DNA of 64,000 nt from Eledone cirrhosa (taxonomy: Eukaryota). Positions 2,813 to 64,000 of this stretch are shown one piece after another. The stretch covers positions 112,158,001 to 112,222,000 of the forward strand of contig OZ024745.1 in NCBI GenBank assembly GCA_964016885.1. Direction: 5' to 3'. A program made the position numbers and the translations under genes. How positions within the stretch are numbered: the first letter of the stretch is position 1; each line of letters opens with the position of its first letter. The notes beneath the pieces are model-generated. The model saw nothing but the letters and a program-made list of their open reading frames with translations. It searched no databases and was not told where the DNA came from.

Positions 2813-4606
2813 TCCCATATAAATATATACGTATGCACATACACACAAGCACACACATATACGCATACGCGTCAGCGTATGGGAAAACATTCTAGTTGAT
2901 TAAGAAGCTAGATTGGTAGATATTGTCTTAGAGTATAGCCACTCAAGATTTCTGTTTCAAGTAAGCGTCATAAAAACCTATAGTTCAATAGATCTATAAT
3001 TACTAACAGCTTCCTGATCAGGCAACTCAATTAGGTCTAAAAACATAAAATAAGTATCCCATTCGTAATCACTTTCATTCGAAAATAAATCATTTGAACT
3101 GCCTTAATTCTCAGGCTTGTTGATTCATTAATAGGAACAGAAATATTGTCATATATCTGCTTGAAATGATGGTTATATGATCAATTTTCTCTGTAGCACT
3201 AGTGCAGAAATATAGTCCTGTTCCAGCGTCAACACTATTTTTTCTTTTGATGTTACTGTAAAGCAAAGGGATCAGTGTATGGTTTGTCATTCTCAGTTAA
3301 ATTAAATGCAGAATTCCAAACTGAACAACTTATCTTTAAATGTGAAGCATTCATGGTGTTTGGAATTGGAATTGGACTCCACTCCTCGCACTAGTGTGAC
3401 GGAGATAATTAATTACATGGACATTGATATGAAATGAAAATTTGCCAGCTGTCAAGCAGATAAATGGCAACATTTTTGTTCTCATTAAGGAATCAACGTT
3501 TCCCAAGAGAATTTTCACTTGCTCTATTTTCAGCACTTCGAGCAGCAATGTGGACTTTTAACAATATATGACGAACAATTTCTATTTATCAGAGACTTCA
3601 GATGTGTACTACTATCGGTTCTATAACAGGAAACATAAAATATCTACTATTAATTTGACAGTCTCGAATCCTTACGAGTGAAATATTTCACTTTGTTCAT
3701 GTTTTTCTTTTGTTCAAAGGCCGCCAGGGTATACTTTCATTATCCCAAGGTCAATAAATAAAGTACCAGTCTAGATCGATGGACTGGTGGACTCATTAGA
3801 ATGCCGGATATAGTGACTTGTTCTGGCTGTGTTCTAAGTTGAAATACCACGGCGCTCTACTTGGAGAATGGACTTAATTCATCACCCGCTGTAACATCAC
3901 AACTTGGCCCGTGGGCACCTTTAACTGTCCCCACTCTTGTTGCAATTTGAGTGAGGTTTCCGGTTTGAGGAGACCTTCCTCCTGACTAAGCGAAAAAAAC
4001 AAAAAAACAAAAAAAAAACGAACTTATTTTATCATCCACGAAGTTTAATTAGGTAGAAGTTTCTTTCGTTTTCTGTCTAAATACCTGAAAAAGAATACAA
4101 CCTTATTTTAAAGCCCCACTATTCTCAGCAATCGTGATCAATGAGAATATGACGCAAGATCTTGAATAGCTGTAGCGTGTGAGTTGGCAATGAGTTTCTT
4201 TTCTGCACCAACCAAAGACTCTGGGGATTTTTACTGCAAATAATTAATATAATTACACGTTTTCTTCTTATATGAAAGCAGTTCTTAGCAAGTGATGAAA
4301 TGATAGGTGTGAGCTGGTAAGACTCAGGATGTCTCCTTATCACTCAGAAGTCGGGCTGAGGGACATAGAATGACGAGCAACAGAAACAGATGTTCAAAAC
4401 AGCTTAAATATTGCCAAGTAGAACAGTAGAATCTAAAAATAAATTAAATTAAACACATTTTTATTGTTAAATAATATATTATTCAATCATCAGCACTCCC
4501 ATATTTTTCACTTGAAGCTACTTTTTTAAGAGAATCATTGTCATTCTTAATATAATAAAAACAATTCAGCAGCTTTTACCACATATCTCTTCACATTATT
4601 TATCAC

Positions 4607-5000
4607 AGCGGTGGTAGATTGGCAGAATCGGTAGAGCGTCAGACAACATGCTTTCTAGCATAGTTACGTCCCTTTACAGTCTGAGTTCAAATCCCGCCGA
4701 GGTTAACTTTGCCTTTCATCCTTATGGGGGTCGATAAAATAAAGTACCAGTAATGCTCTGGGTAATTGCTGGCCTTGTACCAAAAGTAGAAACAATTATT
4801 TATGACAGCGGTGGATTGGCAGTATCGGTAGAGGGTCGGACGCTATGCTTTGCAGCATAGTTACGTGCCTTTACGGACTGAGTTCAAATCCCGCCGAGGT
4901 TAACTTTGCCTTTCAGCCTTACGGAGTCGATAAAATAAAGTACCAGTAATGCACTGGTGTAATTGCTGGCCTTGTGCCAAAAGTAGACACAATTATTTAT
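4607..5000 (+). mobile_element. Two tandem tRNA-derived Deu/Nin-domain SINEs
   Basis: A box tggcagaatcgg, B box gagttcaaatcc, core gcctttcatccttacggggtcgataaaataaagtacc, and ATT tail. Confidence 0.85.
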
Positions 5001-5094
5001 CACAGAGAAAAACTCCTTCAATTGGTGCAGAAGAACCAAGAAGACAACAGTAAGCCTTTTTCTTTCTTTCTTTTTTAATCTAATATGTGTCTTT

Positions 5095-9420: not shown

Positions 9421-11271
9421 CGCGATTGTATACCATCGGTCATTACCCAAGATTCATGGCCATTTTGAATATCACATGCGTAAATCTCCTGTTAGACGTT
9501 CGTATTTAACTTCAAAGTTACTCACAAAAAATAGATATGGATTTTTGATAAGGCTTTTCATTGTGAGAAAAAGACAATCTGAACCCCCCCCCCCAAAAAC
9601 ATAACGAACAAAGAAAGAAACAAATAAACAAAAGCAAGAGAAGATAAGAAAATACAAATGTTTAAGGTGCATGAAAAGAGGATTGTGGCAATTGTGATTG
9701 GTTAAGTGGACAAATGATTGAAACCAAAGGATAAAAGAGCAAGTGAATTAATGGAAAGAGGTTAAGGGAGTATGTATACGTCTAGTTGTAGAACATAGTG
9801 AAGTATAAAATAGAAAGAACATTGAAAAAGCTATTGTTTGGAATTGTCTAAAAAACAACAACCAAAACCTAAACCAAACAAACAAAGCGAGACTTTGTCT
9901 GACCTAAATGGACTAAAAATCTCTTGGAAGATAAGCATCTCCAGACATTCTATTAAAAATAATTGTTTCTACGTTAGGCACAAGGCCAGCAATTACCCAG
10001 TGTATTACTGGTACTTTATTTTATCGACCCCGTAAGGATGAAAGGCAAAGTTAACCTCGGCGGGATTTGAACTCAGAATATTCTATTAGAAATAATATTA
10101 ATAACTGAACTTAGAACGTAAAACGCTTTAACTATAGGTCACAAAGCATGTCCGACGCTCTACCGATACTGCCAATCAACTGCCAATATTTAGACACAAG
10201 GCCAGCAATTTTGGAGATATAAATAAATACCGCAAAGCATGCTGTCCGATGCTCTACCGACCCTATCAATCCACTACTCTATAATAACAAAATAATTGTT
10301 TCTACTTTTGGCACAAGGCCAGCAATTACCCAGTACATTACTGGTACTTTATTTTATCGACCCCGTAAGGATGAAAGGCAAAGTTAACCTCGGCGGGATT
10401 TGAACTCAGACCGTAAAGGGACGTAACTATGCTGGAAAGCATGGCGTCCGACTCTCTACTGATACTGCCAATCCACCGCCCTATAATAACAAAATAATTG
10501 TTTCTATCTTTGGCACAAGGCCAGCAACTATCCCAGTGTATTACTGGTACTTTATTTTATCGACCCCGTAAGGATGAAAGGCAAAGTTAACCTCGGCGAG
10601 ATTTGAACTCAGACCATAAAGGGCCGTAACTCTTTGCTGCAAAGCATGGCGTCCGACCCTCTACCGATACTGCCAATCCAATAATGGTTTCTGATTTAGG
10701 CACAAGGCCAACAATTTTGGGAGAGGGGGAAAATCGATTGAATCGGCCCCAATGTGTTTCTGGTGCTTTATTTTATCGACACCGTAAGGATGAGAAGCAA
10801 AGCTAACCTCGGCGAGATTTGAACTCAGAACGTTAAATTCCGTAACTATTTGCCACAAAACATATTGTCCGACGCTCTACCGATACTGCCAATCCACGAA
10901 ACAATAATAGTTTCTGATTTAATAATTGTTTCTACGTTTGGCACAAGGCCAGCTATTACCCCAGTGTATTACTGGTACTTTATTTTATCGACCCGGTAAG
11001 GATGAAAGGCAAAGTTAACCTCGGCGGGATTTGAACTCAGAATGACAAGGGCCGTAACTCTATACGTCAAAGCATGGCGTCCGACCCTCTACCGATACTA
11101 TCAATCCACCATTGTTTCTGATTTAATAATGATAATAATAATTGTTTCTACTTTAGGCACAAGGCCAGCAATTACCCAGTGCATTACTGGTACTTTATTT
11201 TATCGACCCCATCGACCCCAGTGTGTTGCTGGTACTTTATTTTATCGACTGCGTAAGAATGAAAAGCAAAA

Positions 11272-13178: not shown

Positions 13179-13252
13179 TTACTGGTAATAAGGCGGTAAA
13201 GAATTACTGACTTTCCCTGTTTATAATTATATATAGTGTATATATAAGTATA

Positions 13253-13341
<89 letters not shown>

Positions 13342-13379
13342 ATTAAATAAATGGAAAACTATATTTATAAAACCATATT

Positions 13380-13445
13380 TATTTCATTATATATATTTCG
13401 GGGATATCATATTAACAATATGCTATGCCTTCATCAGACAAAATA
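13380..13445 (-). ncRNA. Hammerhead ribozyme, inverted copy of 13718-13783
   Basis: Reverse complement in the left arm of the 13.2-13.9 kb inverted repeat. Confidence 0.72.
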
Positions 13446-13717
13446 CAATATAAACAGTTTTATAGATAAATATATTCGACATACCATCTCTCTATTTTGT
13501 TCCATGCATTTCTTCTTTTTCTTTTTTTCTTCTTTTTCTTTTTCTTTTTCTTTTTCTTCCTTCTCTTCGTTCTGTCTTTCTTTCTTTCTTTTTTTCCCTC
13601 TTTTCTTTCTCTCTTTCTTTCTCTCTGTATTCTCACTGCTAGCGTAAACCTCTCCAAATGAAGTTGATGTTTATTACGGTATGTCGAATATATTTATCTA
13701 TAAAACTGTTTATATTG

Positions 13718-13783
13718 TATTTTGTCTGATGAAGGCATAGCATATTGTTAATATGATATCCCCGAAATATATATAATGAAATA
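13718..13783 (+). ncRNA. Minimal type I hammerhead ribozyme
   Basis: UAUUUUGU-CUGAUGA-stem II (CAUAUU/AAUAUG, GG/CC)-GAAA-uauaua-UA-AUGAAAUA. Stem I is 8 bp with two GU pairs. Confidence 0.75.
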
Positions 13784-13821
13784 AATATGGTTTTATAAAT
13801 ATAGTTTTCCATTTATTTAAT

Positions 13822-13876
<55 letters not shown>

Positions 13877-14043
13877 TATACTTATATATACACTATATAT
13901 AATTATAAACAGGAAAAGTCAACGTGAGGTATATGATTTTTAATGCATAAAATATCTATGATCGTTGGCAAATCACTGATGAGGGACTCATTTTATAACA
14001 TGTTATCCATGTGCAACCTGCAGTATTCTTCTCCTCATTTTTT

Positions 14044-15502: not shown

Positions 15503-15563
<61 letters not shown>

Positions 15564-15599
15564 ATTAACAAATGGAAACTATATTTATAAAACCATATT

Positions 15600-15664
15600 T
15601 ATTTCATTATACATATTTCAAGGACACCAAGTTAAATTATGGTGTGCTTTCATCAGATAAAATA
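15600..15664 (-). ncRNA. Hammerhead ribozyme, inverted copy of 15802-15866
   Basis: Reverse complement in the left arm of the palindrome. Confidence 0.8.
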
Positions 15665-15801
15665 TAATATAGATCAGTTTTATAAATAAATATTGACATA
15701 CCCTTAAAGAATGCAACCATTACTGTTAGAAGCTCCCGGATAGTAATGGTTGCATTCTTTAAGGGTATGTCAATATTTATTTATAAAACTGATCTATATT
15801 A

Positions 15802-15866
15802 TATTTTATCTGATGAAAGCACACCATAATTTAACTTGGTGTCCTTGAAATATGTATAATGAAATA
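15802..15866 (+). ncRNA. Minimal type I hammerhead ribozyme (same family as 13718)
   Basis: UAUUUUAU-CUGAUGA-AAG c ACACCA loop UGGUGU c CUU-GAAA-uaugua-UA-AUGAAAUA. Confidence 0.82.
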
Positions 15867-16618
15867 AATATGGTTTTATAAATATAGTTTCCATTTGTTA
15901 ATATCGTATTTTTACTCCAAATATTTGTTGAGTGGTTTATATCAGTTATAAAAATATTTGCTTGTTGTATCCCAACAATTTAAATAGAACTTTTACATAT
16001 ATATATATATTTCAACATAATATTTCAGAGTAAACTCCCTTTTCAAATGTAAAACGAAAAAAGGTTCAAAACAAAAAACGAACGATCAATGTGTTCTTCC
16101 CTAACTGATCTAAAGTGTCTAATATTTTGTAATTTTACAGCAGCGGTAACAATTGTAAAATGGTGAAATGCAAATTCATTTGAAACTATTTTCTGGATCA
16201 AGGATCTCCATTCTCATTACCAGCATATGTAATATCTGTTATTTTTCTATGTTTACCAATGAATCAAAATCGTGCCGGACTATGCAACTAATATCGATTT
16301 ATTACTTTGCAAGAATGAAATGTTAGCTTTATAGAAATGAGAGAGTGAGTGACATCAGTTATCTAGGAGAAATTGTTGTAATAAATTCATTTTATTGCTG
16401 TGATCAATTGTTGATGTAGTCTGATAGGGCTGTACACAAGTTATTCGTCTGACATACTTGTGGAACATTTAGAGGTCATAGATACTGCAATGCATGCATA
16501 GTCCCGTGACACCTGATAAAAGCGTGGAGGCGCCGCAGTGATTTTTCTAGGACATTTTAAACCTGGTGGAGCCCATCCCTCTCCAGGTCTGATCACAGCA
16601 GATTTCTTCCAGAGAGAG

Positions 16619-20621: not shown

Positions 20622-20819
20622 CGTGCGTGTGTGTGTGTGTACATATAGGTTGAAGAAATAAAAACCAGCGGCTCTCTCAATGATAAACATTCATTGATTG
20701 TCAGCTAAAATATAAAAATATATAAAAAAAATATAAAAGTATACTGAAGTGAAAACCAAACTAAACAGTGAATGTGTTTTACTATATTTTTAGGACAACA
20801 TGACCCTCCCCAAATATAG

Positions 20820-20901
<82 letters not shown>

Positions 20902-21050
20902 AGTATATGTTGGTTGTTTACCGACACCTCAGTATGCAGATTGGAGCACTAGACGAAGTACGCAGGTTGGTTTGTTTACTCCAGAGTAATGTAAAATAAG
21001 TAAGTCAAACAGGCAAAATTTGGCTTCGTTTATTATAAATTATAAATTTT

Positions 21051-21103
21051 CTGCTATATATATTTCGGTGACAGCTATTATTGGCTGTGACCTCTTCAGG
21101 CAG
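21051..21103 (-). ncRNA. Hammerhead ribozyme, inverted copy of 21228-21280
   Basis: Exact reverse complement within the left arm of the inverted repeat. Confidence 0.85.
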
Positions 21104-21227
21104 TCCGAATTAATTCCAGTTCCTCGGAGGACTAACATCACACGCAGGAGCTGGACATGTCGATGTATTGACAGAGTGGAACATACTTCAACAACATGTG
21201 TACCTGTCTTTTCCACACCAACTCGGA

Positions 21228-21280
21228 CTGCCTGAAGAGGTCACAGCCAATAATAGCTGTCACCGAAATATATATAGCAG
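21228..21280 (+). ncRNA. Minimal type I hammerhead ribozyme
   Basis: CUGC-CUGAAGA-GGU c ACAGC caauaaua GCUGU c ACC-GAAA-uauaua-UA-GCAG, with palindromic stem III/loop. Confidence 0.88.
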
Positions 21281-21397
21281 AAAATTTATAATTTATAATA
21301 AGCGAAGCCAAATTTTACATGTTTAACTTACTTATTTTATTTCGTTTCTGAATTTGTTTAGCAAGATTCTTTATCTGAAATCGTGTGTTGAAACCGA

Positions 21398-21782
21398 TAT
21401 TGTTATACTTTGGGAGGGTCATGTTGCCAATAAGAAACACACGCACCAGTTGACCTCTTCAGTGACTGGGGATTTCTTTCTTTGTTTCTGTGCCTTTCCT
21501 TTCTTCTATCCTACGCCATTTTCAGAAAATGGCGTAGGATAGAAGAAAGGAAAGGCACAGAAACGAAGAAAGAAATCCCCAGTCACTGAAGAGGTCACAG
21601 AGTGTGTGACGAAAGAACTATGACTATATATATATAAACAACTATCTGGTTGTGGAACCAACCAACCAACCAGAAATTTATAAATTTGTAAATTTATAAA
21701 TATTTAATAAATTAAATTGAAGTGAAAGCAACTGGTGCGTGTGTTTCTTATTGGCAACATGACCCTCCCAAAGTATAACAAT
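21398..21782. mobile_element. Fold-back PLE 3' terminus (pseudo-LTR)
   Basis: Inner palindrome 21451-21597 centred at 21524, outer arms 21398-21452 and 21729-21782. Homologous to 47403-47650. Confidence 0.9.
21581..21625 (+). ncRNA. Minimal type I hammerhead ribozyme (same family as 47551-47595)
   Basis: AGUCA-CUGAAGA-g-GUCACA gagug UGUGAC-GAAA-gaac-UA-UGACU, with 5-bp stem I and 6-bp stem II. Confidence 0.88.
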
Positions 21783-21791
21783 TACTTATTT

Positions 21792-21828
<37 letters not shown>

Positions 21829-21860
21829 TTAAAAGAATAGAGGTGTAACACACAAGTTAT

Positions 21861-22146
<286 letters not shown>

Positions 22147-27471: not shown

Positions 27472-27882
27472 TGGTAGATTGGCAGTATCGGTAGAGTGTC
27501 GGACACCATGCTTTGAAGCATAGAGCTACGTCCCTTTATGATCTGAGTTCAAATCCCGCCGGGGTTAACTTTGCCTTTCATCCTTACGGGGTCGATAAAA
27601 TAAAGTACCAGTAATGTACTGAGTAATTGCTGGCCTTGTGCCTAAAATAGAAACAATTATTATTGGTAGATTGGCAGTATCGGTAGAGTATCAGACACCA
27701 TGATTTTCAGCATAGAGTTATGGCCCTTTACGTTCTGAGTTCTCATCTCGCCGAGGTTAACTTTGCCTTTCATCCTTATGGGGTCGATAAAATAAGCATC
27801 AGTATAATGTACTGTGGTCGATTTAATCAACTTTTCCCTCCCCCAAAATTGCTGGCCTTGTGCCTAAAGTAGAAACAATTAT
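27472..27882 (+). mobile_element. Two tandem SINEs
   Basis: Same SINE family consensus. Confidence 0.85.
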
Positions 27883-28356
27883 TATAACAACGAGAACACC
27901 AACGATAACAACACTAAGAACAACGATAATAACGATAAGAATTACAGTTTCAAAAGTAACAAAACTAACGCCGATAGCAACAACGACACCAATACTAGTA
28001 TAATGACTAAGAATCCTGTTTCATACGCCAACGTAGACATCATAGGAACCCAGCACTCACTTGAAACTAAAAACGAGGCGATAAGAAAATATAGGGGTGA
28101 TAGTCATGATTGCTCTAGGCAAAAATGTCGGCGAAACCAGCAGAAAAGCTATAGAATATAAAATATTCTCATAAGAGTTTGAAAATTAGAATTTGCCACG
28201 TCACGAGTGGAGATATGCCCGGAAAAGATATAGGATGCTCTAGGGTACATAACGAAAGGGGGGATATGCAACTGTAGTGGTAATTAGTCAAGGAGAACAG
28301 GATATCTGTTGATTCTCTGCTACACTTGAAAAGGAAAATCAGTGTAGAGAGGGCAG

Positions 28357-35008: not shown

Positions 35009-35944
35009 TGTGTGTATGTATGTATATATGTATGTATGTATGTATGTGTGTATGTATATATACATGGCTATTACTTTTATAAAATCTTATCATCTATGAT
35101 TGACTCGTTGTTTGATGACAATGAACCAAGTTTTTCAATTCAATGACGGTAAGTATGTGACCTTTATCACATTTCCGAGAACACTCTTATTTTCTGTTTG
35201 AATCTTCGCATGATATTTTTTCAATTTTTCTCCTTTTTTTGGTTATCCTTTCAATTATCTCTTCCAATATATTTTTTTTTACCTGTTCTTTTCATCACAC
35301 ACTTTCCTTTTTACTACGTCTTTCTTCTGCTTTTCTTTATACTTTTTTTACCACATCTTTTTATCTCTTTGAGCTCATTTTCATCTTTCAAATTAGATTT
35401 GGAAATAATGAAGCTAATCTTTCAAGTGATGAGAGAGAAATGTGATAAGTTTCTGTTGATGGAAAAACAAAGGAACTAAAGAGAAAGAGCGATAAAAAAA
35501 AATGACTGGCGTGGTAGGGGGTGTGGTGGACAGAAGAAAGGACAAGATAGGAAGAAGAAAGAGAGGCTTTCAAAGAATTTTTGAGATAAGTTAAAAGGAA
35601 CATTTACTATATTTACTCTTAATATCTAAATAGAAATAATTAAATCTAGAAAAAGTTATATAATTAAATGTGTATCCTTAAATACACTTAAACATGAAAT
35701 TATATACATACATTCATATATATATATATATACATATATACATATATACATATATATATACATATATATATACATAGTCCAGAAATATACATATATATAT
35801 ACATAGTCCAGAAATAGCCGTCGTCGAAACTTCTTGGGCTCTGCCGTCAGCGTTAAACATTTTCCTATTACCCACTCTACTACCCTAAGTACTGAGTACT
35901 CTGGTCAGTTATGGTCCATCTGATTCCTTAACACACCTCCTTCG

Positions 35945-35982
<38 letters not shown>

Positions 35983-42032: not shown

Positions 42033-42231
42033 AAAACAAAGAGGGTGTGGTAAGATACCAGGTGGACCATAACGGACCAGAGTACTCAATACTTAGGGTA
42101 GTAGAGTGGGTAATGGGAAAAGAGTCAGGACTCCGACGGCTGAGCTCCGGCCGTTTCGACAGCTTGATCCGTAACTAGTTCTGATCTAGCTGTCGAAACG
42201 GCCGGAGCTCAGCCGTCGGGGTCCTGACTCT

Positions 42232-42235
<4 letters not shown>
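42033..42235 (-). mobile_element. Short TA-anchored element ('ccctaag' family) with fold-back end and 3' half of a HHR
   Basis: Shares ttacccactctactaccctaagta(t/c)tgagtact with 35810-35947, 43474-43581 and 49295-49432. Inverted arms at 42117-42169 and 42183-42235. Confidence 0.8.
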
Positions 42236-42291
<56 letters not shown>

Positions 42292-42523
42292 GTATATAAA
42301 TATATATATATATAAATATATTAAGGGTACTATTTATGGTTATGTATGTAATAAAACCATTAATGGTAATATATTATATATACAAACCTTAAATAGTGAA
42401 AGATAGTCATTAATTACTATCCTATTACCAGTAAGATAAATAGCTCAATGTAATAACATCAGTTGTTTTACAGAGCAGTTATATAGAGATTACAATAATC
42501 AAAGTTCAGTTTAAGTCATTTAT

Positions 42524-42572
42524 TTGCTTACAATTGTTTCCTCCAAACCGAGGTTTGGATTCTTCGGAGCAA
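42524..42572 (-). ncRNA. Hammerhead ribozyme with variant core CCGAAGA
   Basis: Minus strand: UUGCU-CCGAAGA-a-UCCAAACC uc GGUUUGGA-g-GAAA-caauug-UA-AGCAA. Confidence 0.75.
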
Positions 42573-43127
42573 CTATTAACTGATCTATAACATACTTGAC
42601 CTCCTTTTCAACCCAAGAGACATATAAAACATATGCGCATATTGATCAACAGTGGGTGACATTCATCAAATGATATATCATGGCAATTTACATATAAAGG
42701 TTACAGGATAAAAATAAAAATAAAAACAAGAATGAAAATAAAGATAAACATGAAGCGTTGGCAGTCTATGAAGATAAAGCAAGAGGAAAGTTTAGAGTAG
42801 TCAGTGTATGAAACAATCTCACGTGTAGCATGCACGCGTGTCTTATTTATACATGATTAGAGTGCGTCAGAATGATATTTGCAGGGTCAAGCAGTTGAAG
42901 CAGGCAATCGATCTTATTATGTGGGCTGAATTATTAAGTCATTTATTCGCCTACATCTGTATGATATACAGTCTCGGATGCAGGGAAACACCAAAATATC
43001 AAAAACTTTCAACATACTATAAACCTTATTGTATCGTAGGCAAAGCCGTACCACTGTCTTCGCTCACACCATTTATATGTCTCTTGGGTTGAAAAGGAGG
43101 TCAAGTATGTTATAGATCAGTTAATAG

Positions 43128-43176
43128 TTACTCCGAAGAATCCAAACCTCGGTTTGGAGGAAACAATTGTAAGCAA
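43128..43176 (+). ncRNA. Hammerhead ribozyme with variant core CCGAAGA, inverted partner of 42524-42572
   Basis: Same fold, with one stem I mismatch (UUACU/AGCAA). Confidence 0.72.
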
Positions 43177-43216
43177 ATAAATGACTTAAACTGAACTTTG
43201 ATTATTGTAATCTCTC

Positions 43217-43304
<88 letters not shown>

Positions 43305-43314
43305 TATATATATG

Positions 43315-43581
<267 letters not shown>

Positions 43582-47242: not shown

Positions 47243-47293
47243 AGATTCCTGATGATTTCTCACGAATGAAATAGTTCTAGTCCTGTGGAATCT
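47243..47293 (+). ncRNA. Hammerhead-like motif, probably inactive (G at cleavage position)
   Basis: AGAUUC-CUGAUGA-u UUC ucac GAA u-GAAA-UAG uucuaguc CUG-UG-GAAUCU, with a perfect 6-bp stem I. Confidence 0.6.
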
Positions 47294-47402
47294 CTTCTCT
47301 GTTAAAACTTTTATACTCTGCTATGTATTGAGTACCTTACTTACTGTGGTTACCTCTGATCCAACCCGGAATAAGTTATCTATCTATCTATATATATATA
47401 TA

Positions 47403-49277
47403 TATTGTTATACTTTGGGAGGGTCATGTTGCCAATAAGAAACACACGCATCAGTTGCTTTCACTTCAATTTATTATAATAAATTTATAAATTTAGGAAT
47501 TTATAAATTTCCGGTTGGTTGGTTCCACAACCAGATGATTGTTTATATATTGTCAAAGTTCTTTCGTCACACATTCTGTGACCTCTTCAGTGACTGGGGA
47601 TTCTTTTCTTTGTTTTTGTGCCTCTCCTTTGTTCTGTCCTACGCCATCTTGTTTTTGTGTGTGTGTTGTGTGCTTAGTTTGCGCATGTGTTACATCCGGG
47701 TGTCTGTGTGTGTTTATATTCGTTTACTTATTTGTTTATTTACATGTTACTGGTTGGTTGTTTGTTCTATGTGCGTATGTGTGTTTTCATTTTGTCCTTA
47801 ATTGTAAGTTGTGATGTTGCTGTTCCACTCATGTTTTCTATTTAATTTTGGTTGGAGTTCATTTATGTTTATTGCCTCTGTGATTTGTCTAAACATTGCG
47901 TCTTTTCTGTGTGTAGATTCTATTTTTATTTCTATGTTCTCTAATTTACCCTTATGTTCTATTTTAGCATGTTGGTAGAGTGCAGATGATTCTTTACTAT
48001 CTTGAAGGTCTCACCAGTGTTCATTTATCCGTTCCCCTATACTACGAGCTGTCTCACCTATGTACTCTATATTTTTATTTCTACATTGTCCTTCAGTACA
48101 TCTTATGCTATATACTACATTTCTAGTTTTACAGTTAATATGGGGGCTTAATTTACAGATTATACATTTCTTATCTATACAGGGAGGTCTTTGAAAAGGG
48201 TATGTATTGCTAATAAGTGTTTTTATAGGGGTACCTGGTCTTTCTACTATCTTAATATTGAGTTTATGTTTATCTCGGGGCCTTCTAAATTTGTAAGCTA
48301 ATTCACCTCTAGGGGTTGTATCGATGAACATTACACTCTGGTATTTATTGCTATCATACCATGAGTTTATTCTATTAGCCTTATTCCTAGTTCTTTCTAT
48401 TCTATTCCAAAATTTGCTTCTATACAAGGGGCAGGTCCCATTTGTGTCATTACTTACCATTTTTTCCCATTTGGTTCTGGCTCCTCTATATACTCTGATT
48501 TTATCTCTCTGATTGTAACCAGAGAACTGCATACGGTGGATGAAGTGTTGTATGTGTCTCTCTAGTTCTTTGGGGTTGCACATGCGGGACACGTTTCTCA
48601 TCACTCGTACCAAATCCGCAATCAGTATGTTGATTTTGGTATGGTCCGAAACAGCTGAGTTTCGGTGGATCAGATATTTGGAAGTGATGGGTTTGGCATA
48701 ATGGGAATGGAGGATTTGTTTTTTGTTATTAATAGTATCTAACCAGAGCTCTGTGTCTAGTACAGGTAATCGATGGTTGGGGTGTTTGCTTGAGTAGTCT
48801 ATAGTAACTCTAATACTCTGGTGGATGGAGTTAGCTATTTTCTGGATGCGTTCCATTGTGTTTTTCTCTAATTCCTGACTGTTCTCTAGTGGGGTGTTTT
48901 TACTACGATGTTTATATCATCAATGTAGCGGGAGTACATTATCAGTGTTGAGGGGTCTTATAATTGTTCTTTAAGTTTAAGTTTAAGTCTACTGTCCCAC
49001 CATACCATAAATAGGTTAGCTATGTCGCCTGCAATGCTAACACCAATGGCTGCTCCCTCCTCTTGGGCATATGTTTTTCCATTAAATTTGAACATATGTT
49101 CCTTAAGGGTTAATTTTATGCTGGCCCCCACCGCATGGGCAATCATTTTCTTTAGTTCATCGTGGTTTTCGGGGGTCCGTATGGCTCTGGTCCACCCGTT
49201 CCATCTATCTGTGTGGGTTTTCTTGGCCATTGAGGTAATGGTAGGTGGTCTACCTCTTGCTGGTCTTGTAGGGCACG
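47403..49277 (-). mobile_element. 5'-truncated, frameshifted Penelope-like element (RT + GIY-YIG), related to the 62-64 kb element
   Basis: ORF pieces 48958-49277 (GAAIGVSIAGDIANLFMVWWD) and 48011-48856 (LPVLDTELW...NVVYSIRC...YIGETARS) are collinear with the 557 aa ORF. Both ends abut (TA)n. Confidence 0.93.
47551..47595 (-). ncRNA. Minimal type I hammerhead ribozyme in PLE 3' UTR
   Basis: Minus strand: aGUCA-CUGAAGA-g-GUCACA gaaug UGUGAC-GAAA-gaac-UU-UGAC. Confidence 0.85.
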
Positions 49278-49639
49278 CATATATATATATATATAACAAA
49301 GGAATTGTGGTAAGGAACCAGATGGACCATAACGCACCAGAGTACTCAATACTTAGGGTAGTAGAGTGGGAAATAGGAAAAACTATGACACCGACGGCAG
49401 AGCTCAAGCGGTTTCGACGGCTATTTCCGGAATTCCTAAAACAGAATTTCTTTTACAATTCTATAATTATGACAATCCCATTTACCTCTCTCCCCTATAG
49501 CAATTGTCTCTAGCTTACATTTCCTCTCTTCGCCACCCCCATCTGACCTCTTGACCAGTTCTTTAACACAATTGAGATACAAACACCTATATTCAGAAAC
49601 ATTTCCTCTCCCTAAAAATAATCTTGTTCTGTGAAAATA

Positions 49640-49822: not shown

Positions 49823-50134
49823 CTCTTTCTCTCTATATAAGGTTCTATTTTAGACCCGGTTTTCTTCTTAACAAGAAAGATGAACAGACCTTCTTCAACA
49901 CTTAATTTTAAATTTTAATTTTTAATTCTTTTAAATTCTTTTTAATTGTAATATTCAACATTTGATAAGATGGATTATAGCGATACATCGAAACCGGTTA
50001 TATTTCGTATATTTTATATACATAATAAAACTCCCTTTTTTAAAAACATTGTTTCTCTCATTTTTTTCAATAATGTCACTTCGACGGATCAAAGAAGAAA
50101 AAAAGAAAAACAATCTATCTTATTTCTCATTCTT

Positions 50135-50170
50135 TCTTCTGATGAAGGACTAGCGTCCAAAACGCCAAGA
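50135..50170 (+). ncRNA. Decayed hammerhead motif
   Basis: UCUU-CUGAUGA-a GGAC uagc GUCC-aAAA-cg-cC-AAGA. A related copy on the minus strand at 51384-51419 retains GAAACGUUAAGA. Confidence 0.5.
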
Positions 50171-50255
50171 TCCTCTTCCTGCTATATCAAGCGTTAACCT
50201 AATATATCCCTTCCATATACTGTACCGATTGTGTTGTTATTTCTATTTACATTTT

Positions 50256-51280: not shown

Positions 51281-54200
51281 TGTGTGTGTGCATGCAAAAG
51301 GCAAACAGAAATAACAAAGCAAACAACACAGTACAATTAAGAAATATATTATTAGTTGTACGCTTGATATAGTAGGAAAAGAGTCTTAACGTTTCAGACA
51401 TTAGTCCTTCATTAGAAAATAGAATGAGAAATTAAAGAGGAAATAGAAACATTGAGGAGACGGGCACTGGCAGAAACGAAAAAAAGGTCTATTCACGTCG
51501 CCATTTCTAGGAGAACTGTTGATGCTGGCATTTTGTGTAAGATAATCTTATTTTAAAAAGTTGTGATCGAACGCGTCTAGCTGAAAGGGGAAAAACGGTT
51601 TTGTAAATAGAGCTGTACGTATACGTGTGTGTGTGTTATACGTCCGTACGAAGCAAGAGGGTATGTGTGTGTGTATATATAAGTGTAAGAGTGTGTGTGT
51701 GTGTTTGTAAGTACGTAGCTGTGAGCATATGTGTATGTATATAAGGGTGTGTCTGTGTGTGTGTTAGTTGTTGTTCCGTACAGAGATGTGAAGGTATGTA
51801 TAGAGGTGTGTTTTGTTGGTCTGTATAAGCTGTAAGAGTGTGTGTTTCTGACCACAACAGAGTCATAGTTTAGCTTGGACTATAACTAGAGAATGTTTTA
51901 AAATTAAAAGATTCTATCTAGCAGTAGCATGAATATTAGAAGCCCATTGACTATTATCCACTTCACTTCCTCCTCCTTCACTTGTTACACAAATATGCCT
52001 AATATATATTATTTCATTATCTCTGGACACAAACATAATGCGAGTGAGTGAATACAATATTTATACTAAATATTGTGGTAAATTATTGGAAGCTTGAATC
52101 ATACTTGAAGATTTAACATCATATTACATAACTCCATTAACTACTCAGAGAACAAATATGTGGTAAGCTGTTTCACTGTTATTTACATATTCATTCTACA
52201 CTAATACAAATTAACCAACAAAAAATGAAAACTTCCTATCTTCACACACACACACACATAGTAGCAAGTTACTCGCCGAAGGTTTTATGATAAACAACCT
52301 TTTTTTATTTTCTCACTTTATCATTAACATAAATATTGTTTTGGCGTCCATCACCACCCCAGGGCTCATCAATCCTCAGCCTAGCTAACTTTAACGTCGG
52401 ACTTTGTTATCTGTTGATGGACATTGTGAAGCTAATGTATGAACGGAATTGGAGTACTTTGATCTGATATGGTTTCTCGGTAGGACGGTAATACCGTGAT
52501 GAGAAACCTTTACCCATTGAAACATTTACTGAAACAGAGAAATATTCGTAAAAATTGCTGTAATTTTTGTAGAAAAACATTCTCTTGACACATGACGTCT
52601 TCATGTCAAAATAATTCTCTCTATCTCCCCACAAAATACTGTTGGGAAATATGTGGAAAACATTTTGTCTCACGCAATTTTAATAAAATATAAAAAGAAT
52701 AGCCACTAAAATAATGGTTTCTGATTTAGGCACAAAGCCAACACATTTGGGGAGGGGGAGTCCATTAAATCGACCCCAGTACGTGACTGGTACTTTATTT
52801 TATCGACCCCGTAAGGATGAAAGGCAGAGCTAACCTCGGCAGGATTTGAACTTAGAACGTAAATGGCCGCAACTCTATGCCACAAAGTATGGTGTCCGAC
52901 GTTCCACCGCCCTATTATAGTCACTAAAATAATAACGGCTCATCTGTGAAATATATACGAAATTTTTCATTCGGAATTTGAAACTTTTAATAATAGTCTG
53001 TATTATTGTGTTGTCAATTTTACTGTTAATATAAAGATTTTCTCTTTAAATCCTTCTATCCAGGGATTAGTTGTAATGTGGAGCAGCATTAGGAAAATAA
53101 TGGTAATAATATTTGATGACGATCGTTTGTTCAGGTATTCAGAGAATTGTCTTGTTTCTCGGAAACAAAGTATTGTGAATTAGAACGTTCTAAAGTGAAA
53201 GTGCGTGGCTGAGTGGTTAGAGAATTGGATTCGCAATCATGAAGTTGTGAGTTCGATACCCAGACCGCACGATGCGTTATGTCCTTGAGCAAAACACTTT
53301 ATTTCACATCGTTCCTTCTGCCTGGATTTGCGACGGTAGATAGTATTAGCAATTGGGAAGACCAATTGAAACATCGTTTCCACGGTCCGATTTGACGAAC
53401 TCCACCCCAACTCGTTGCGTGAATGATGTTTGGGATCTTCTCGATCGACTGTTATTATTACAAAGTAATATATAATATGTATGCTTTTGTAAAATTTGCT
53501 CCAATGCTATCAAAAAATCTGATTTCTTTTATAAAAGATGTACTTTTTTTTTAGCTTCCTTGTTGTTTTAGGTTACAATTATGCAGGAATTGTCATCTCG
53601 TTATAATCCTTTTCCTATATTTGGGAATTTTATTTGAAGATTGTGGAGAAGATACAGGATTATATTGCTTATTTAGCTGAACTTTTAGCATTAAAACTTA
53701 CATAAATCGGAGTATTAGATGGATTTCTACTCAACATGGAATCTTATAAATTTATTCTCATATTACGTTCATATGTGATTATGTTCACATTCGAATTCTT
53801 AATATTAGCGATTCATCTGTCAAAGTTAGGGTCCTTGTTGAACAAAGTTAGTGTAGTAGTAGAGTAATACTTCACACCTAAATCTCTAGTTTAAATCTAT
53901 TTATATAACAACCCCCAACCTTTTACAAAATTTATTTGACAAATTCTTTTTTTATCAATTTTTTCTTTTCTCCTTTAGCTATCAAGCTATGTATATATGG
54001 AGTCATATCTCCCGAGGGAGTGGTTGCGTTGCCACCATATTGACATACAGCGTTTCAAGGGCTTTTATTTTTAAAACCTAACGGAGCCTATCTCTTCTCC
54101 AGGTTTGAATACAGTAGATTTCTTCCAGAGAAATATAGAGTGAGAGAATGAAAGTGAGAAAGAGATATAGAGGAAGAATCGACCCCAGTACTAGATTGGT

Positions 54201-55567
54201 ACTTTTTTTATCGACCTTGAATGGCTGAAAGGCAAAACTGATATTAGCGGTATTTGAGCTCAGAGAGCAGAGAGCCAAAACGAATACTGCAAAGCATTCT
54301 ATCTGAGGTTCAAACGACCCGGCCAATTTACCGCATTGCTGTCAAGTTACCAATACCCACCTAAATTAGAACTAGTGTCACTCCTTCATCGATAAATTCT
54401 CATTAAATCCCCATCTTCATCTAAATTTTGATTAGAAAAGCATTTATTTTTTCAACAGAAGTCCCTTTATAAAGTCTTAGTTTTATAAACAGATGTGTCA
54501 GAAAAAGAGACATATTAATTTTTTTAAAGGTTAGTCTTTAAACTTATACTATTTTCCGTTATATCTTATCAATTGGGTTCTTCTTCATTTGAAACTAGAT
54601 GTTATGTCCCACTCACAGTTTGTCTCTTTCTCCTCTCCCCCCTCTCTATCTCACTTATTCATTACAACTTCCATACTTCACTTCTTCTCCAGTCAATTCT
54701 CCTTCAAAACTTCTCTCAATTGACTGATTGATTGATCGGAACAAAACACAGATAAACAACTAGACTTATTTTATCATAACTTCATTTATTAGAAACTATA
54801 AGCCCTGTCTAATCAAAAGATTTAGGTTTGCCGTCATTTCATGATAAATTGGCTTCGTCATGTATGTCTGGAAGAAGGCAATCAGTTGATATCTATCTTT
54901 CTTATTCTCAATTCTTGTCTGAAACGATGTACTGGCCTCATATTTAGCTTACTCTTGAACTCTCCCCCTCAATATATGACAGGAGCAACATACTTACTCG
55001 CTCTCTATCTTCTTCTTCTTCTTCTTTTTCTTTTTCTTTTTCATTTTTTCTTTTTCATTTTTCTTTTTCATTTTCTTTTTCTTTTTCTTTTTCTTTTTCT
55101 TTTTCTTTTTCTTTTTCTTTTTCTTCTTCTTCTTCTTCTTCTTCTTCTTCTTCTTCTTCTTCTTCTTCTTCTTTCAACCTATACTATGACCTCTCACAAT
55201 TTACTCACAATTTCTTTCATTCTTATTCTTTTTCTCCGTATCTAAGAAACATTTTCTGAAATGTGAACATTCTAAAATAAAGTGAATACCTTATTAGGAA
55301 GACATCAATTCCTCTCTTACTTCTTTTTTCCCTTCTAAACAAAACATTTTGAAATTCGAATGATATATATATTCAGGCGAATTCCTTATATGGAACTTAC
55401 AATAACATACATCACCCATAATTCATTGTTATTTTTATAAATTAAGGAGAAATGTAAATAGTTATACTTTTTAAAAGAAACTGAGCTATGCGTGCTTTTT
55501 AGAATATACAACAATACTTATATATGACTTTTATATAATATGCTTGCATGCTTAATAATAATAATAA

Positions 55568-56140
55568 TAATTGTTTCTACTTTAGGCACAAGGCCAGCAA
55601 TTACCCAGTGCATTACTGGTACTTTATTTTATCGACCCCGTAAGGATGAAAGGCAAAGTCAACCTCGGCGGGATTTGAACTCAGATCGTAAAGGGAGGGC
55701 TTCAAAGCATGGCGTCTGACCCTCTACCGATACTGCCATGGTTCCTTATATAGGCAGAAGGCCAGCAATTTTGGGGGAGGGGAAGTCGATTAATTGGACC
55801 CCAGTGCGTGACTGGTACTTTATTTTATCGACCCCGTAAGGATGAAAGGCAAAGTTAACCTCGGTGGGATTTGAACTCAGACCGTAAAGGGGCGTAACTC
55901 TATGCTGCAAAGCATGGCGTCCGACCCTCTAGATTTAATAATGGTTTCTGATTTAGGCCCAATTTGGGGGGAGGGGAAAGTAGAATAAATCGACCTCGGT
56001 GCGTGACTGGTACTTTAATTTATCAACCCCGTAAGGATGAAAGGCAAAACTAATCTCGGTGGGATTTGAACTCAGAACGCAAAGGGACGTAACTATATGC
56101 CGCAAAGCACTATCTACCGATACTGCTAATTCACCGCCCT
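55568..56140 (-). mobile_element. Three tandem SINEs
   Basis: Same family. Solo copies also at ~7275, 24470, 31623, 34105, 36180, 41163, 44420, 52710 and 57265. Confidence 0.85.
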
Positions 56141-61815: not shown

Positions 61816-62000
61816 TTGCGTAATATTGCCAGAATTAATAACAGAACACACTCACTGTTTGGTTGGTTTTCGCTTCTCGCTGTCTTTTATATATATATAT
61901 CTGCGATCTAACTTACTCGGTCCTCAATGTTGCCATTGACTGACCGGCGGTCAAAAATAATACAGATACAATATAGACAAACACATATATATATAGTTTA

Positions 62001-62040
62001 CATAAATCTTTCGTTGCACATCTGCAACATCGTCAGTGGT
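62001..62040 (-). ncRNA. Minimal type I hammerhead ribozyme in PLE 3' UTR
   Basis: Minus strand reads acCA-CUGACGA-u-GUUGCA gaug UGCAAC-GAAA-gauu-UA-UG. Core intact, 6-bp stem II, weak stem I. Confidence 0.7.
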
Positions 62041-62307
62041 GTTATATTCATTGTTCCTCCTGTTGTGTTGTATGTCTACGCCATTTTTTTTTGTTCAGTC
62101 TGTCTATATATTTATTTATTTATTTGCTTGTTTGTTTATCTTATTTTATTTTGTCTTCTTTGCGCATGCGTTTGCGTGTGTGTATAGTGTTATGTGTGAT
62201 GTGTGACTAGTGTGTATAGTGTTGTCTGCTGGGTGACTAGTGTGTGTTTATGTGCTTGTGTATGTATTTATTTATCTTATTTTATTTAATTTAATTTACT
62301 TATTTAT

Positions 62308-63981
62308 TTATACTTCTCTTAGGTCAGTGTTGTTTGTTTGGGTGTTGTTGTTGTTCCACTCATTCTTTCTGTTTAGCTTTGGTCTTCTAATTTCTATTTC
62401 ACTGGCCTCTCTGATTTGCCTATCTGCTGGGTCATTCCTATGTTTAGATATTATTCTAATTTCTATGTTGTCTATGTTACCGTCATGATGTTGTCTAGCA
62501 TGTTCGTATAGTACTGACCCGTTTTTTCGTCCTTTTAGTTCCCCCCAGTGTTGGTCTATCCTTTCACCTATGCTACGAGCTGTCTCACCTATGTATGTTG
62601 TTGTCGTGTTTCTGCAAGTACCCTCTGTACATCTTATGCTATAGACTACGTTTCTAGTTTTACAGTTTATCCGGGGGTTCACCTTACATATGATACATTT
62701 CCTATTGGTACAGTGGGTTTTCTTAAAAGGGTAGGTTTTGCTGATCAGGGATTTTATGGTGGTTCCTGGCTTTTCTACCACCTTTATTTTTAAGTGGGTC
62801 TTTCTCAGGGCCTTTCTACACTGGTTAGCTAATTTCCCTCCAGGGGTGGCGTCCACAAACATGACACTCTGATATCTCTGGTTGTCGTACCATGATGTGG
62901 CCTTCCCTATCTTATGTCTAGCCCTATCTAAGCTATTCCATGATTTGCTCCTGTATAGTGGGCAAATTCCTTTCATGTCCAGTTCTATGAGGGTCTTATA
63001 CTTTTCCATGGCTCCTTCGTATACTCTGACTCTGTCTCTTTGGTTGTAGCCAGAGAACTGCATGCGGTTGATGAAGTGTTGGATGTGTCCTTCCATTTCT
63101 GTTGGGTCGCACATGCTGGACACATTCTTCATCACTCGTACCAAATCTGCGATCAGAATATTAAACTTAGCACTACTGGACATTGCTGAGTTTTTGAGTA
63201 TCAGGTATTTGGAGGCCATGGGTTTAGCATAGTGTGAGTGGAGAATTTGGGCTCTCTCGTCTATAGTGTTAATCCAGAGTTCTGTGTCTAATACAGGTAG
63301 TCTATTGTTAGGGTGTTTGGAAGGGAAGTCTATAGTTACAGTTATACTCTGGTGTATGGAATTAGCTATCTGCTGGATGCTTTCCATCGTGCTACGTTCT
63401 AAATCAAACTTGTTAGTGCTCTCTAGTGGGGGTGTTCTTATAACTATATTGATATCGTCTACATAACGAGAGTACATGATGAGGTCTATGGAGCTTTCAT
63501 TAAGGAGATCTTTAAGTCTCCTTTCCCACCATACCATGAAAAGGTTGGCAACATCGCCAGCTATGCTGACGCCGATGGCTGCTCCCTCATTTTGGGTGTA
63601 GATTTTCTCATTGAACTTAAATATGTGGCCCTTTAGGGTAGTTTTGATACTAGCCCCTATTGCATGTGCGACCATTTTTCTTACCTGATCAGTGTTTTGG
63701 GGGGTCCGTATAGCTTTGGTCCACCCAATCCACCTTCCTATGGGAGTCTTTTTAGCCATTGAGGTTATGGTGGGGGGTCTACCTCTTATAGGTCTACTAG
63801 GGCAGAAACATCTAAGGTCATGGCTGTCTAGGTAGTCAGTGTCGTAGGTAAGTCTAAGTAGGAGGCCCAGTTCGTCTGTGTCGACGTCGCAGAACTCCAC
63901 CTCACTCTCAATGATCATCTCCACACATCTTTTCACAGCAAAATCAATGTTAATGGATGGGTACAGTGACACCACATCCAT
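62308..63981 (-). CDS. Penelope-like retroelement ORF: reverse transcriptase + Cys-rich linker + C-terminal GIY-YIG endonuclease (continues past window end)
   Basis: 557 aa open frame with RT motifs DVVSLYPSI, GAAIGVSIAGDVANLFM, RYVDD, LPVLD and thumb HYAKPMASKYL. Linker CTNRKCIIC. GIY-YIG as NVVYSIRC...YIGETARS..R...QIREASEI..PKLN. Frame stays open to base 64000. Confidence 0.95.
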   Translation of the reverse strand: MDVVSLYPSINIDFAVKRCVEMIIESEVEFCDVDTDELGLLLRLTYDTDYLDSHDLRCFCPSRPIRGRPPTITSMAKKTPIGRWIGWTKAIRTPQNTDQVRKMVAHAIGASIKTTLKGHIFKFNEKIYTQNEGAAIGVSIAGDVANLFMVWWERRLKDLLNESSIDLIMYSRYVDDINIVIRTPPLESTNKFDLERSTMESIQQIANSIHQSITVTIDFPSKHPNNRLPVLDTELWINTIDERAQILHSHYAKPMASKYLILKNSAMSSSAKFNILIADLVRVMKNVSSMCDPTEMEGHIQHFINRMQFSGYNQRDRVRVYEGAMEKYKTLIELDMKGICPLYRSKSWNSLDRARHKIGKATSWYDNQRYQSVMFVDATPGGKLANQCRKALRKTHLKIKVVEKPGTTIKSLISKTYPFKKTHCTNRKCIICKVNPRINCKTRNVVYSIRCTEGTCRNTTTTYIGETARSIGERIDQHWGELKGRKNGSVLYEHARQHHDGNIDNIEIRIISKHRNDPADRQIREASEIEIRRPKLNRKNEWNNNNTQTNNTDLREV

Positions 63982-64000
63982 GCTGCCTATTATGCAGTTG

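Follow-up and report, generated by a model that had tools for sequence, protein, structure and literature searches.

A head-to-head pair of Penelope-like element termini in Eledone cirrhosa and a possible route of its integration

Endonuclease-positive (EN+) Penelope-like elements (PLEs) are typified by an inverted, 5'-truncated copy that adjoins their 5' end and by a tail of 30-40 bp at one end only (PMC8557442; PMC8969392). A 2013 study of rotifer elements described inverted pLTRs, palindromes at the inverted junctions, tails that extend the start of the ORF, target-site duplications (TSDs) of 8-10 bp and deletions at microhomologies, and it inferred self-priming, an idea that has thus been in print for PLEs since that year (PMC3846280). 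Purified PLE protein nicks and extends both strands, and two reverse transcriptase (RT) start sites bound the tail (PMC11167929). The origin of the inverted ends and of the one-sided tails is stated to be unresolved (PMC8557442; PMC11167929). Our search of the literature, which covered papers available without subscription, found no twin-priming or snap-back model for PLEs.

Outside the PLEs, L1 twin priming reportedly employs primers on both target strands and leaves inverted pieces that are joined by microhomology; its second primer is said to start inside the RNA and its pieces not to overlap, whereas in the unit studied here both pieces start at the 3' end. L1 twin priming is mentioned in a recent preprint (bioRxiv 10.1101/2024.12.14.628481), and R2 provides snap-back junctions, likewise comparable to our locus, in which the 3' end of the cDNA primes on itself before 5' joining (PMC11371274). 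Both R2 and L1 differ from the elements considered here in being non-LTR elements with other endonucleases. Non-LTR retrozymes resemble our unit in being short, non-coding, type I hammerhead-bearing and derived from PLE termini, but they are tandem arrays of units joined head to tail, at least two of which carry a complete hammerhead (bioRxiv 10.64898/2026.07.22.740005). The studied unit is arranged head to head and holds one complete hammerhead motif, and its reading as a non-LTR retrozyme was therefore rejected.

The unit lies in a 64,000-nucleotide stretch of Eledone cirrhosa DNA (the window). It consists of two PLE tail-end pieces arranged head to head, and we regard the cassette (21341-21781) as one dead-on-arrival retrotransposition product whose class is almost certainly that of an EN+ PLE. 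With canonical EN+ PLEs it shares head-to-head termini, a palindrome at the inverted junction, a tail at one end, a terminus and tail that may encode the first ORF residues, a terminal hammerhead, a short TSD, an AT-rich or microsatellite target and an internal gap with microhomology (PMC3846280; PMC8557442). It differs from them in its palindrome of 73 bp per arm, as against 15-38 bp in the rotifer examples (PMC3846280), in its tail of about 58 nt rather than 30-40, in its TSD of 12-13 bp rather than the 8-10 bp of rotifers, and in being a unit of 441 bp without any ORF body. PAc, the Poseidon element of Anolis, is comparable in that both strands are nicked and extended at an AT-rich target, and its two RT start sites bounding the tail predict one tailed and one tail-less arm; its ORF begins inside the hammerhead, whereas that of the studied family begins about 170 nt downstream of CUGAAGA (PMC11167929). 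The pattern is known for the class, and the locus taken alone is one more example of a described structure. This copy preserves the steps of integration unusually clearly, separating within one insertion what we read as a long cDNA, a snap-back and a short tail-bearing cDNA.

Layout of the unit and its target site

The features of the unit and of its relatives in the window are as follows.

21328 to 21340, forward strand: left TSD, 13 bp (12 if the first T is the element's)
21341 to 21398, reverse strand: one-sided PLE tail, 58 nt, extending the ORF start in frame
21399 to 21452, reverse strand: outer left piece, the last 54 nt of the family terminus, 54/54 identical to the reverse complement of 21729-21782
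21451 to 21523, reverse strand: inner left piece, 73 nt, which repeats the right arm's 5' part in inverted orientation, 72/73 complementary to 21525-21597
21524, no strand: apex, a single unpaired base where the conserved AARATGGCG motif begins
21525 to 21782, forward strand: right arm, a 258-nt 5'-truncated PLE 3' terminus, pLTR-sized and without tail, 228/258 to the reverse complement of 47404-47650
21581 to 21625, forward strand: minimal type I hammerhead motif, core and stems annotated by hand
21782 to 21794, forward strand: right TSD, followed by (TA)n
47404 to 49275, reverse strand: same-family PLE copy with RT and GIY-YIG, 5'-truncated and broken, tail-less and ending in (TA)n
61821 to 64000, reverse strand: second, more distant PLE copy, with 72% DNA identity over 62342-63804 and its own hammerhead

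Against the reverse complement of 47404-47650 the right arm shows 19 mismatches and 11 gapped columns in addition to its 228 identities (blastn E about 1e-93), and the left arm (21399-21523) is an inverted copy that starts at the apex and is 124/125 identical to the right, both much as the preliminary description had proposed. Arms as similar as these indicate one source template. Pairing between them falls into two blocks: 21451-21523 pairs with 21525-21597 apart from one mismatch (21483/21565), and 21399-21452 pairs with 21729-21782 throughout. Between the blocks, 133 nt of the right arm are missing from the left, where a skip of about 130 nt had been reported, and the tg microhomology noted at the join corresponds to a 2-nt TG/CA overlap at 21451-21452. 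Random junctions in this arm would show microhomology of at least 2 nt in 19% of cases, and the overlap is consequently not evidence by itself. The claimed loss of half the ribozyme from the left arm is equally real: the inner left piece stops just past CUGAAGA, which is kept, and stem II and GAAA are gone. The left boundary had been placed wrongly at 21398, as the tail and the TSD carry the unit to about 21341. In keeping with EN+ PLE membership, an inverted 5'-truncated copy adjoins the 5' end head to head. The ATG of the ORF lies at 21759 in the right arm and at 21422 in the outer left piece, and there was no sign of any host function at the locus.

The 13-mer that we take for the TSD occurs exactly twice in the window, at 21328-21340 and 21782-21794; among 1261 control windows of 150 nt, none reached an 11-nt prefix match, the best being 10. 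Such a repeat, followed by (TA)n, is consistent with the short TSD in an AT-rich or microsatellite target that EN+ PLEs display. The left duplication also forms the final bases of a neighbouring hairpin, B (20992-21339), which argues that the 441-bp unit was inserted between B and (TA)n in one event. The cassette thus appears to have entered at the junction of an older PLE end and a (TA)n run.

The putative hammerhead comprises a stem I of 5 bp, CUGAAGA at 21586, an unpaired base, a stem II of 6 bp, GAAA at 21611, a stem III of 2 bp and a predicted CUA cleavage triplet ending at 21620, and it fits the published description of the minimal hammerhead (PMC4209133). In the 72%-identical relative near 62036, two pairs of stem II have changed in a compensatory way, and core, stems and compensatory changes together point to the minimal type I hammerhead expected in an EN+ PLE terminus. 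None of the 148 Rfam matches at E up to 1 was to a hammerhead family. Elsewhere in the window, hammerhead-like CUGAUGA..GAAA motifs occur at 47249-47300 (+) and at about 50140-50165 (+), the latter within one arm of an inverted repeat whose arms (50122-50255 / 51296-51432) are 76% identical.

Several other origins of the 133-nt skip were considered and rejected. A spliced intron is contradicted by its ends, for the acceptor side ends in AG, yet the junction keeps GT, and the ends fit GT..AG on neither strand; the skip is, moreover, absent from the best 15 of 396 joints in family reads. The corresponding joint in the public-run contigs, 47455 to 47581, was not found among those best 15 joints even though some 83,000-110,000 reads cover its start, and a skip missing from that list at such depth is not a variant commonly carried by family copies that reach beyond the apex. 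Ribozyme cleavage fails because the predicted cut after 21620 fits neither breakpoint (21595-21597, 21729-21731), and a structural cause of the jump fails because the arm, folded as RNA or as DNA, leaves the breakpoints apart. Matches to miRNA precursors at 21476-21577 were all under their gathering scores and were discounted, since they are expected for any perfect hairpin.

The tail and the parent family

Four public runs, of 13 listed, were compared against 47398-48600 for joints and loose ends; runs X5 and X1 are labelled as different organisms. Contigs that run beyond the PLE 3' terminus enter a shared sequence (139 contigs in X5, with a median of 33 nt, and 11 in X1), and the loose-end consensus before 47402 matches 21367-21396 at 27/30 positions in X5 and 26/30 in X1, its best matches elsewhere in the window being 20/30 and 22/30. 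The DNA to the left of the arm is therefore the family tail, and it stands at one end only, the left, as EN+ PLE membership would have it. The comparison with reads covers 30 of the 58 nt (21367-21396); for 21341-21366 the basis is only the TSD and a weak similarity to a protein N-terminus.

That similarity arises from the frame that begins at ATG 21422 and stays open for 27 codons, to 21342. The peptide of tail and terminus resembles the N-terminus of P0065 (6/5000 shuffles), one of three homologues tested, the other two giving 885/5000 and 315/5000. Of 65 proteins, 11 were long, and from these the three were selected by eye; P0065 was picked following a non-significant blastp match (E 25), so the resemblance is to be read as weak; a database search with a 40-residue N-terminal query found no protein. 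Related, diverged termini at 20800 and 30896 keep the first codons. Both stop at the same point as the studied family, eight codons past the conserved ATG, and their conserved start reads M[TA]LPKY with synonymous, third-position changes.

As is further expected of an EN+ PLE, the terminus is joined in the remnant at 47.8-49.3 kb to an ORF for RT and, C-terminally, a GIY-YIG domain, which were recognised by motifs and homology. This copy is damaged by a frameshift near 48895 and by in-frame stops. In its ORF pieces a GIY-YIG-type motif that includes two cysteines occurs together with histidines downstream and with a linker of four cysteines; the four-cysteine cluster lies upstream of the GIY-YIG motif in the 48011-48913 frame, a Cys-rich linker between RT and EN being, together with RT phylogeny, the criterion of the Neptune/Nematis clade. 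The homologues of the ORF include Octopus RT-domain proteins, and in two frames its pieces show 64-71% identity in tblastn to the predicted Octopus vulgaris RT-domain protein P0043. Pfam found no RT or GIY-YIG match on the ORF pieces of the window, and the PLE call accordingly rests on motifs, homology and terminal anatomy; on P0043, Pfam gave an RVT_1 match only, below the cutoff. The more distant copy at 61.8-64 kb, whose 3' boundary is approximate, shares the AAAATGGCGTAG motif.

The preliminary description had tied the hairpin to the PLE some 26 kb away. The tie holds at the level of the family, in that the terminus belongs to the family represented at 47.4-49.3 kb, and it fails for that particular element, because the arms match each other at 124/125 and the 47-kb copy at only 228/258. 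As a donor this copy was rejected on its 30 differing columns, a private allele, its lack of a tail and its broken ORF. The private allele is at position 47451, where nearly all of the family and the hairpin read C and the 47-kb copy reads T, and the two 4-nt insertions of the hairpin are family variants in the public-run reads. An autonomously replicating mini-element family would be expected to repeat one fixed apex and one fixed gap in many genomic copies; the studied apex and gap were both absent among the best 15 of 396 joints and 24 of 1831 loose ends, and a scan of metagenome contigs with a 27-nt pattern of the terminus gave 0 matches. Depth steps near 47650 (1.38M to 0.95M to 0.74M in X5) would be compatible with a boundary but were left uncounted, as this depth gives no copy number.

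Integration route and competing readings

The best model for the cassette combines two-strand priming, snap-back and joining, and on balance we think it probable. From the pieces, the tail and the TSD we infer the following course. The GIY-YIG endonuclease would nick both target strands 12-13 nt apart, a spacing suggested by the TSD. The right nick would prime a cDNA at the tail-less RT start site, which would run for 258 nt, and the left nick may have primed another at the tail-proximal start site that stopped after about 112 nt; the outer left piece (21399-21452) is read as this short second cDNA bearing the tail. The 3' end of the long cDNA would then snap back through a loop of 1-3 nt and copy itself for ~72 nt, a step suggested by the zero spacer of the palindrome, and the inner left piece (21451-21523) is read as the product of this synthesis. 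The snap-back end and the end of the short cDNA would presumably anneal through 2 nt, with fill-in completing both strands. If two nascent strands were joined in this way, the 133-nt "deletion" would be a junction and the loss of the GAAA half incidental. The model predicts that apparent deletions in inverted arms are junctions between an apex palindrome and a tail-bearing end.

Other loci supply some comparisons. Among the opposite-strand joints listed, 2/5 start at 47451 and 47459, near the equivalent of the junction (47455-47457), a weak indication, from RAD reads with 1-2 starts each, that short inverted 3' pieces exist at other loci. Short inverted arms at 42117-42235 and 43420-43503 stop inside the element and join (TA)n, each paired with a long arm. 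In the cassette at 13338-13825 the flank too belongs to the inverted repeat for about 50 bp (61/62), an arrangement that requires DNA-templated copying. Against the two-strand model it must be said that it draws on one locus only, and that a 58-nt tail exceeds both the 30-40 bp usually cited and the 33-nt median of the X5 loose ends. Counting against snap-back in particular, no self-pairing is predicted for the final 40 nt of the cDNA, so that the step would be protein-assisted, with at most one base pair.

The preliminary description had suggested fold-back priming followed by a template jump. Fold-back, or snap-back, priming remains the best reading of the zero-spacer apex; a jump within the same cDNA does not account for the outer left arm, because the 58-nt tail is missing from the right arm, and fold-back plus jump on one template could build the left arm only with later trimming. 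Fold-back on the target-primed cDNA of the right arm would copy target rather than tail, so the outer left piece calls for a second template or for trimming. The route may be amended such that a tail-bearing cDNA folds back, jumps 133 nt on itself and is copied to its end, yielding a hairpin intermediate from whose right arm the endonuclease then cuts the tail. One template would thereby explain the 124/125 identity, in the view of Craig et al. it is the endonuclease that, by resolving an intermediate, leaves the tail on one side (PMC8557442), and Arkhipova et al. infer self-priming from junction palindromes (PMC3846280). We nonetheless hold this course to be quite unlikely, since a copy of the target-primed right-arm cDNA would enter target DNA and need an extra trimming step, and since in vitro two RT start sites account for the tail (PMC11167929).

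A less probable reading than two-strand priming with snap-back, albeit one to be taken seriously, is that two equal cDNAs of 258 nt, one of them with tail, were primed at one nick each and joined at the apex without snap-back, 133 nt being lost through an RT skip or a later microhomology-mediated deletion. Tail, TSD and arm identity are explained equally well in this manner, and the identical sequence results if an inverted arm that was full at first lost the segment later. Microhomology-mediated deletions are reported in Penelope copies (PMC3846280), near-equal arms are found in the cassettes at 15557-15909 and 21867-22049, and the skipped segment is full of local hairpins. Both cDNAs would have to stop at the same nucleotide, however, and one extra event is needed. 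Spacers of 9, 17, 108, 192 and 443 nt separate the terminal arms in the five other cassettes that have two of them; a spacer of zero is thus not usual, unless the RNA naturally has its 5' end at the apex. Fold-back chimeras can also yield perfect palindromes, but it is very improbable that the hairpin is such an artefact of library or assembly, which would add neither a family tail missing from the other arm nor a TSD; the arms differ at one site, and the arm identities of neighbouring cassettes range from 115/120 to 148/148, as expected for insertions of differing age.

The apex itself invites a further reading. The AARATGGCG motif, which we take to resemble a YY1 initiator site, occurs 4 times in the window (21522, 21526, 47650 and 62087), always in the studied PLE family, and forms an island of conservation between elements that are just 72% identical. 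The right arm opens with G, where two longer copies have C and A, and this extra G together with the motif at the apex suggests a natural transcript start. For L1, an untemplated 5' G is held to indicate that the template was capped, and accurate initiation is cited as depending on a YY1 site (PMC6425141). The apex could accordingly be the natural 5' end of a short capped transcript from a promoter in the PLE terminus, and such cassettes could be full-length copies of a dedicated hammerhead RNA of ~260-320 nt, integrated by double-strand priming and snap-back, a proposal that we consider unlikely. Many family reads pass through 47650, and neither a joint nor a loose end falls there among the best 15 of 396 joints and 24 of 1831 loose ends. 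Were the proposal true, a genome rich in such cassettes would be a natural archive of the second, unsolved half of PLE integration.

Neighbouring cassettes and other repeats

The studied cassette is one of three head-to-head cassettes that lie back to back in 20901-22049, a local insertion hotspot in (TA)n; the others are at 20992-21339, in the end of which it is nested, and at 21867-22049, and a related PLE terminus at 20708-20825 precedes the trio. At 13208-13924 lies a head-to-head hammerhead cassette with arms of 148/148 and a spacer of 192 nt, whose inverted repeat crosses (TA)n runs into the flank and points to DNA-templated fold-back across the insertion junction. Extra non-microsatellite sequence that is tail-like and lies past one arm only was seen at 15557-15995, 20901-21339, 21830-22049 and 42400-43220.

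Another terminus family is represented by cassettes at 42035-42235 and 43420-43580, each with a long arm and a short inverted one (59 and 30-50 nt); relative to the family sequence, the two short arms terminate at roughly the same place, in (TA)n. That family recurs at 35807-35945 and at 49296-49431, the second of these copies sitting at the 5' break of the 47-kb PLE. A very abundant dispersed repeat of ~190 bp, often in short tandem arrays, occupies 4595-5010 and about 20 other places, including 9950-11210, 27472-27896 and 55566-56140.
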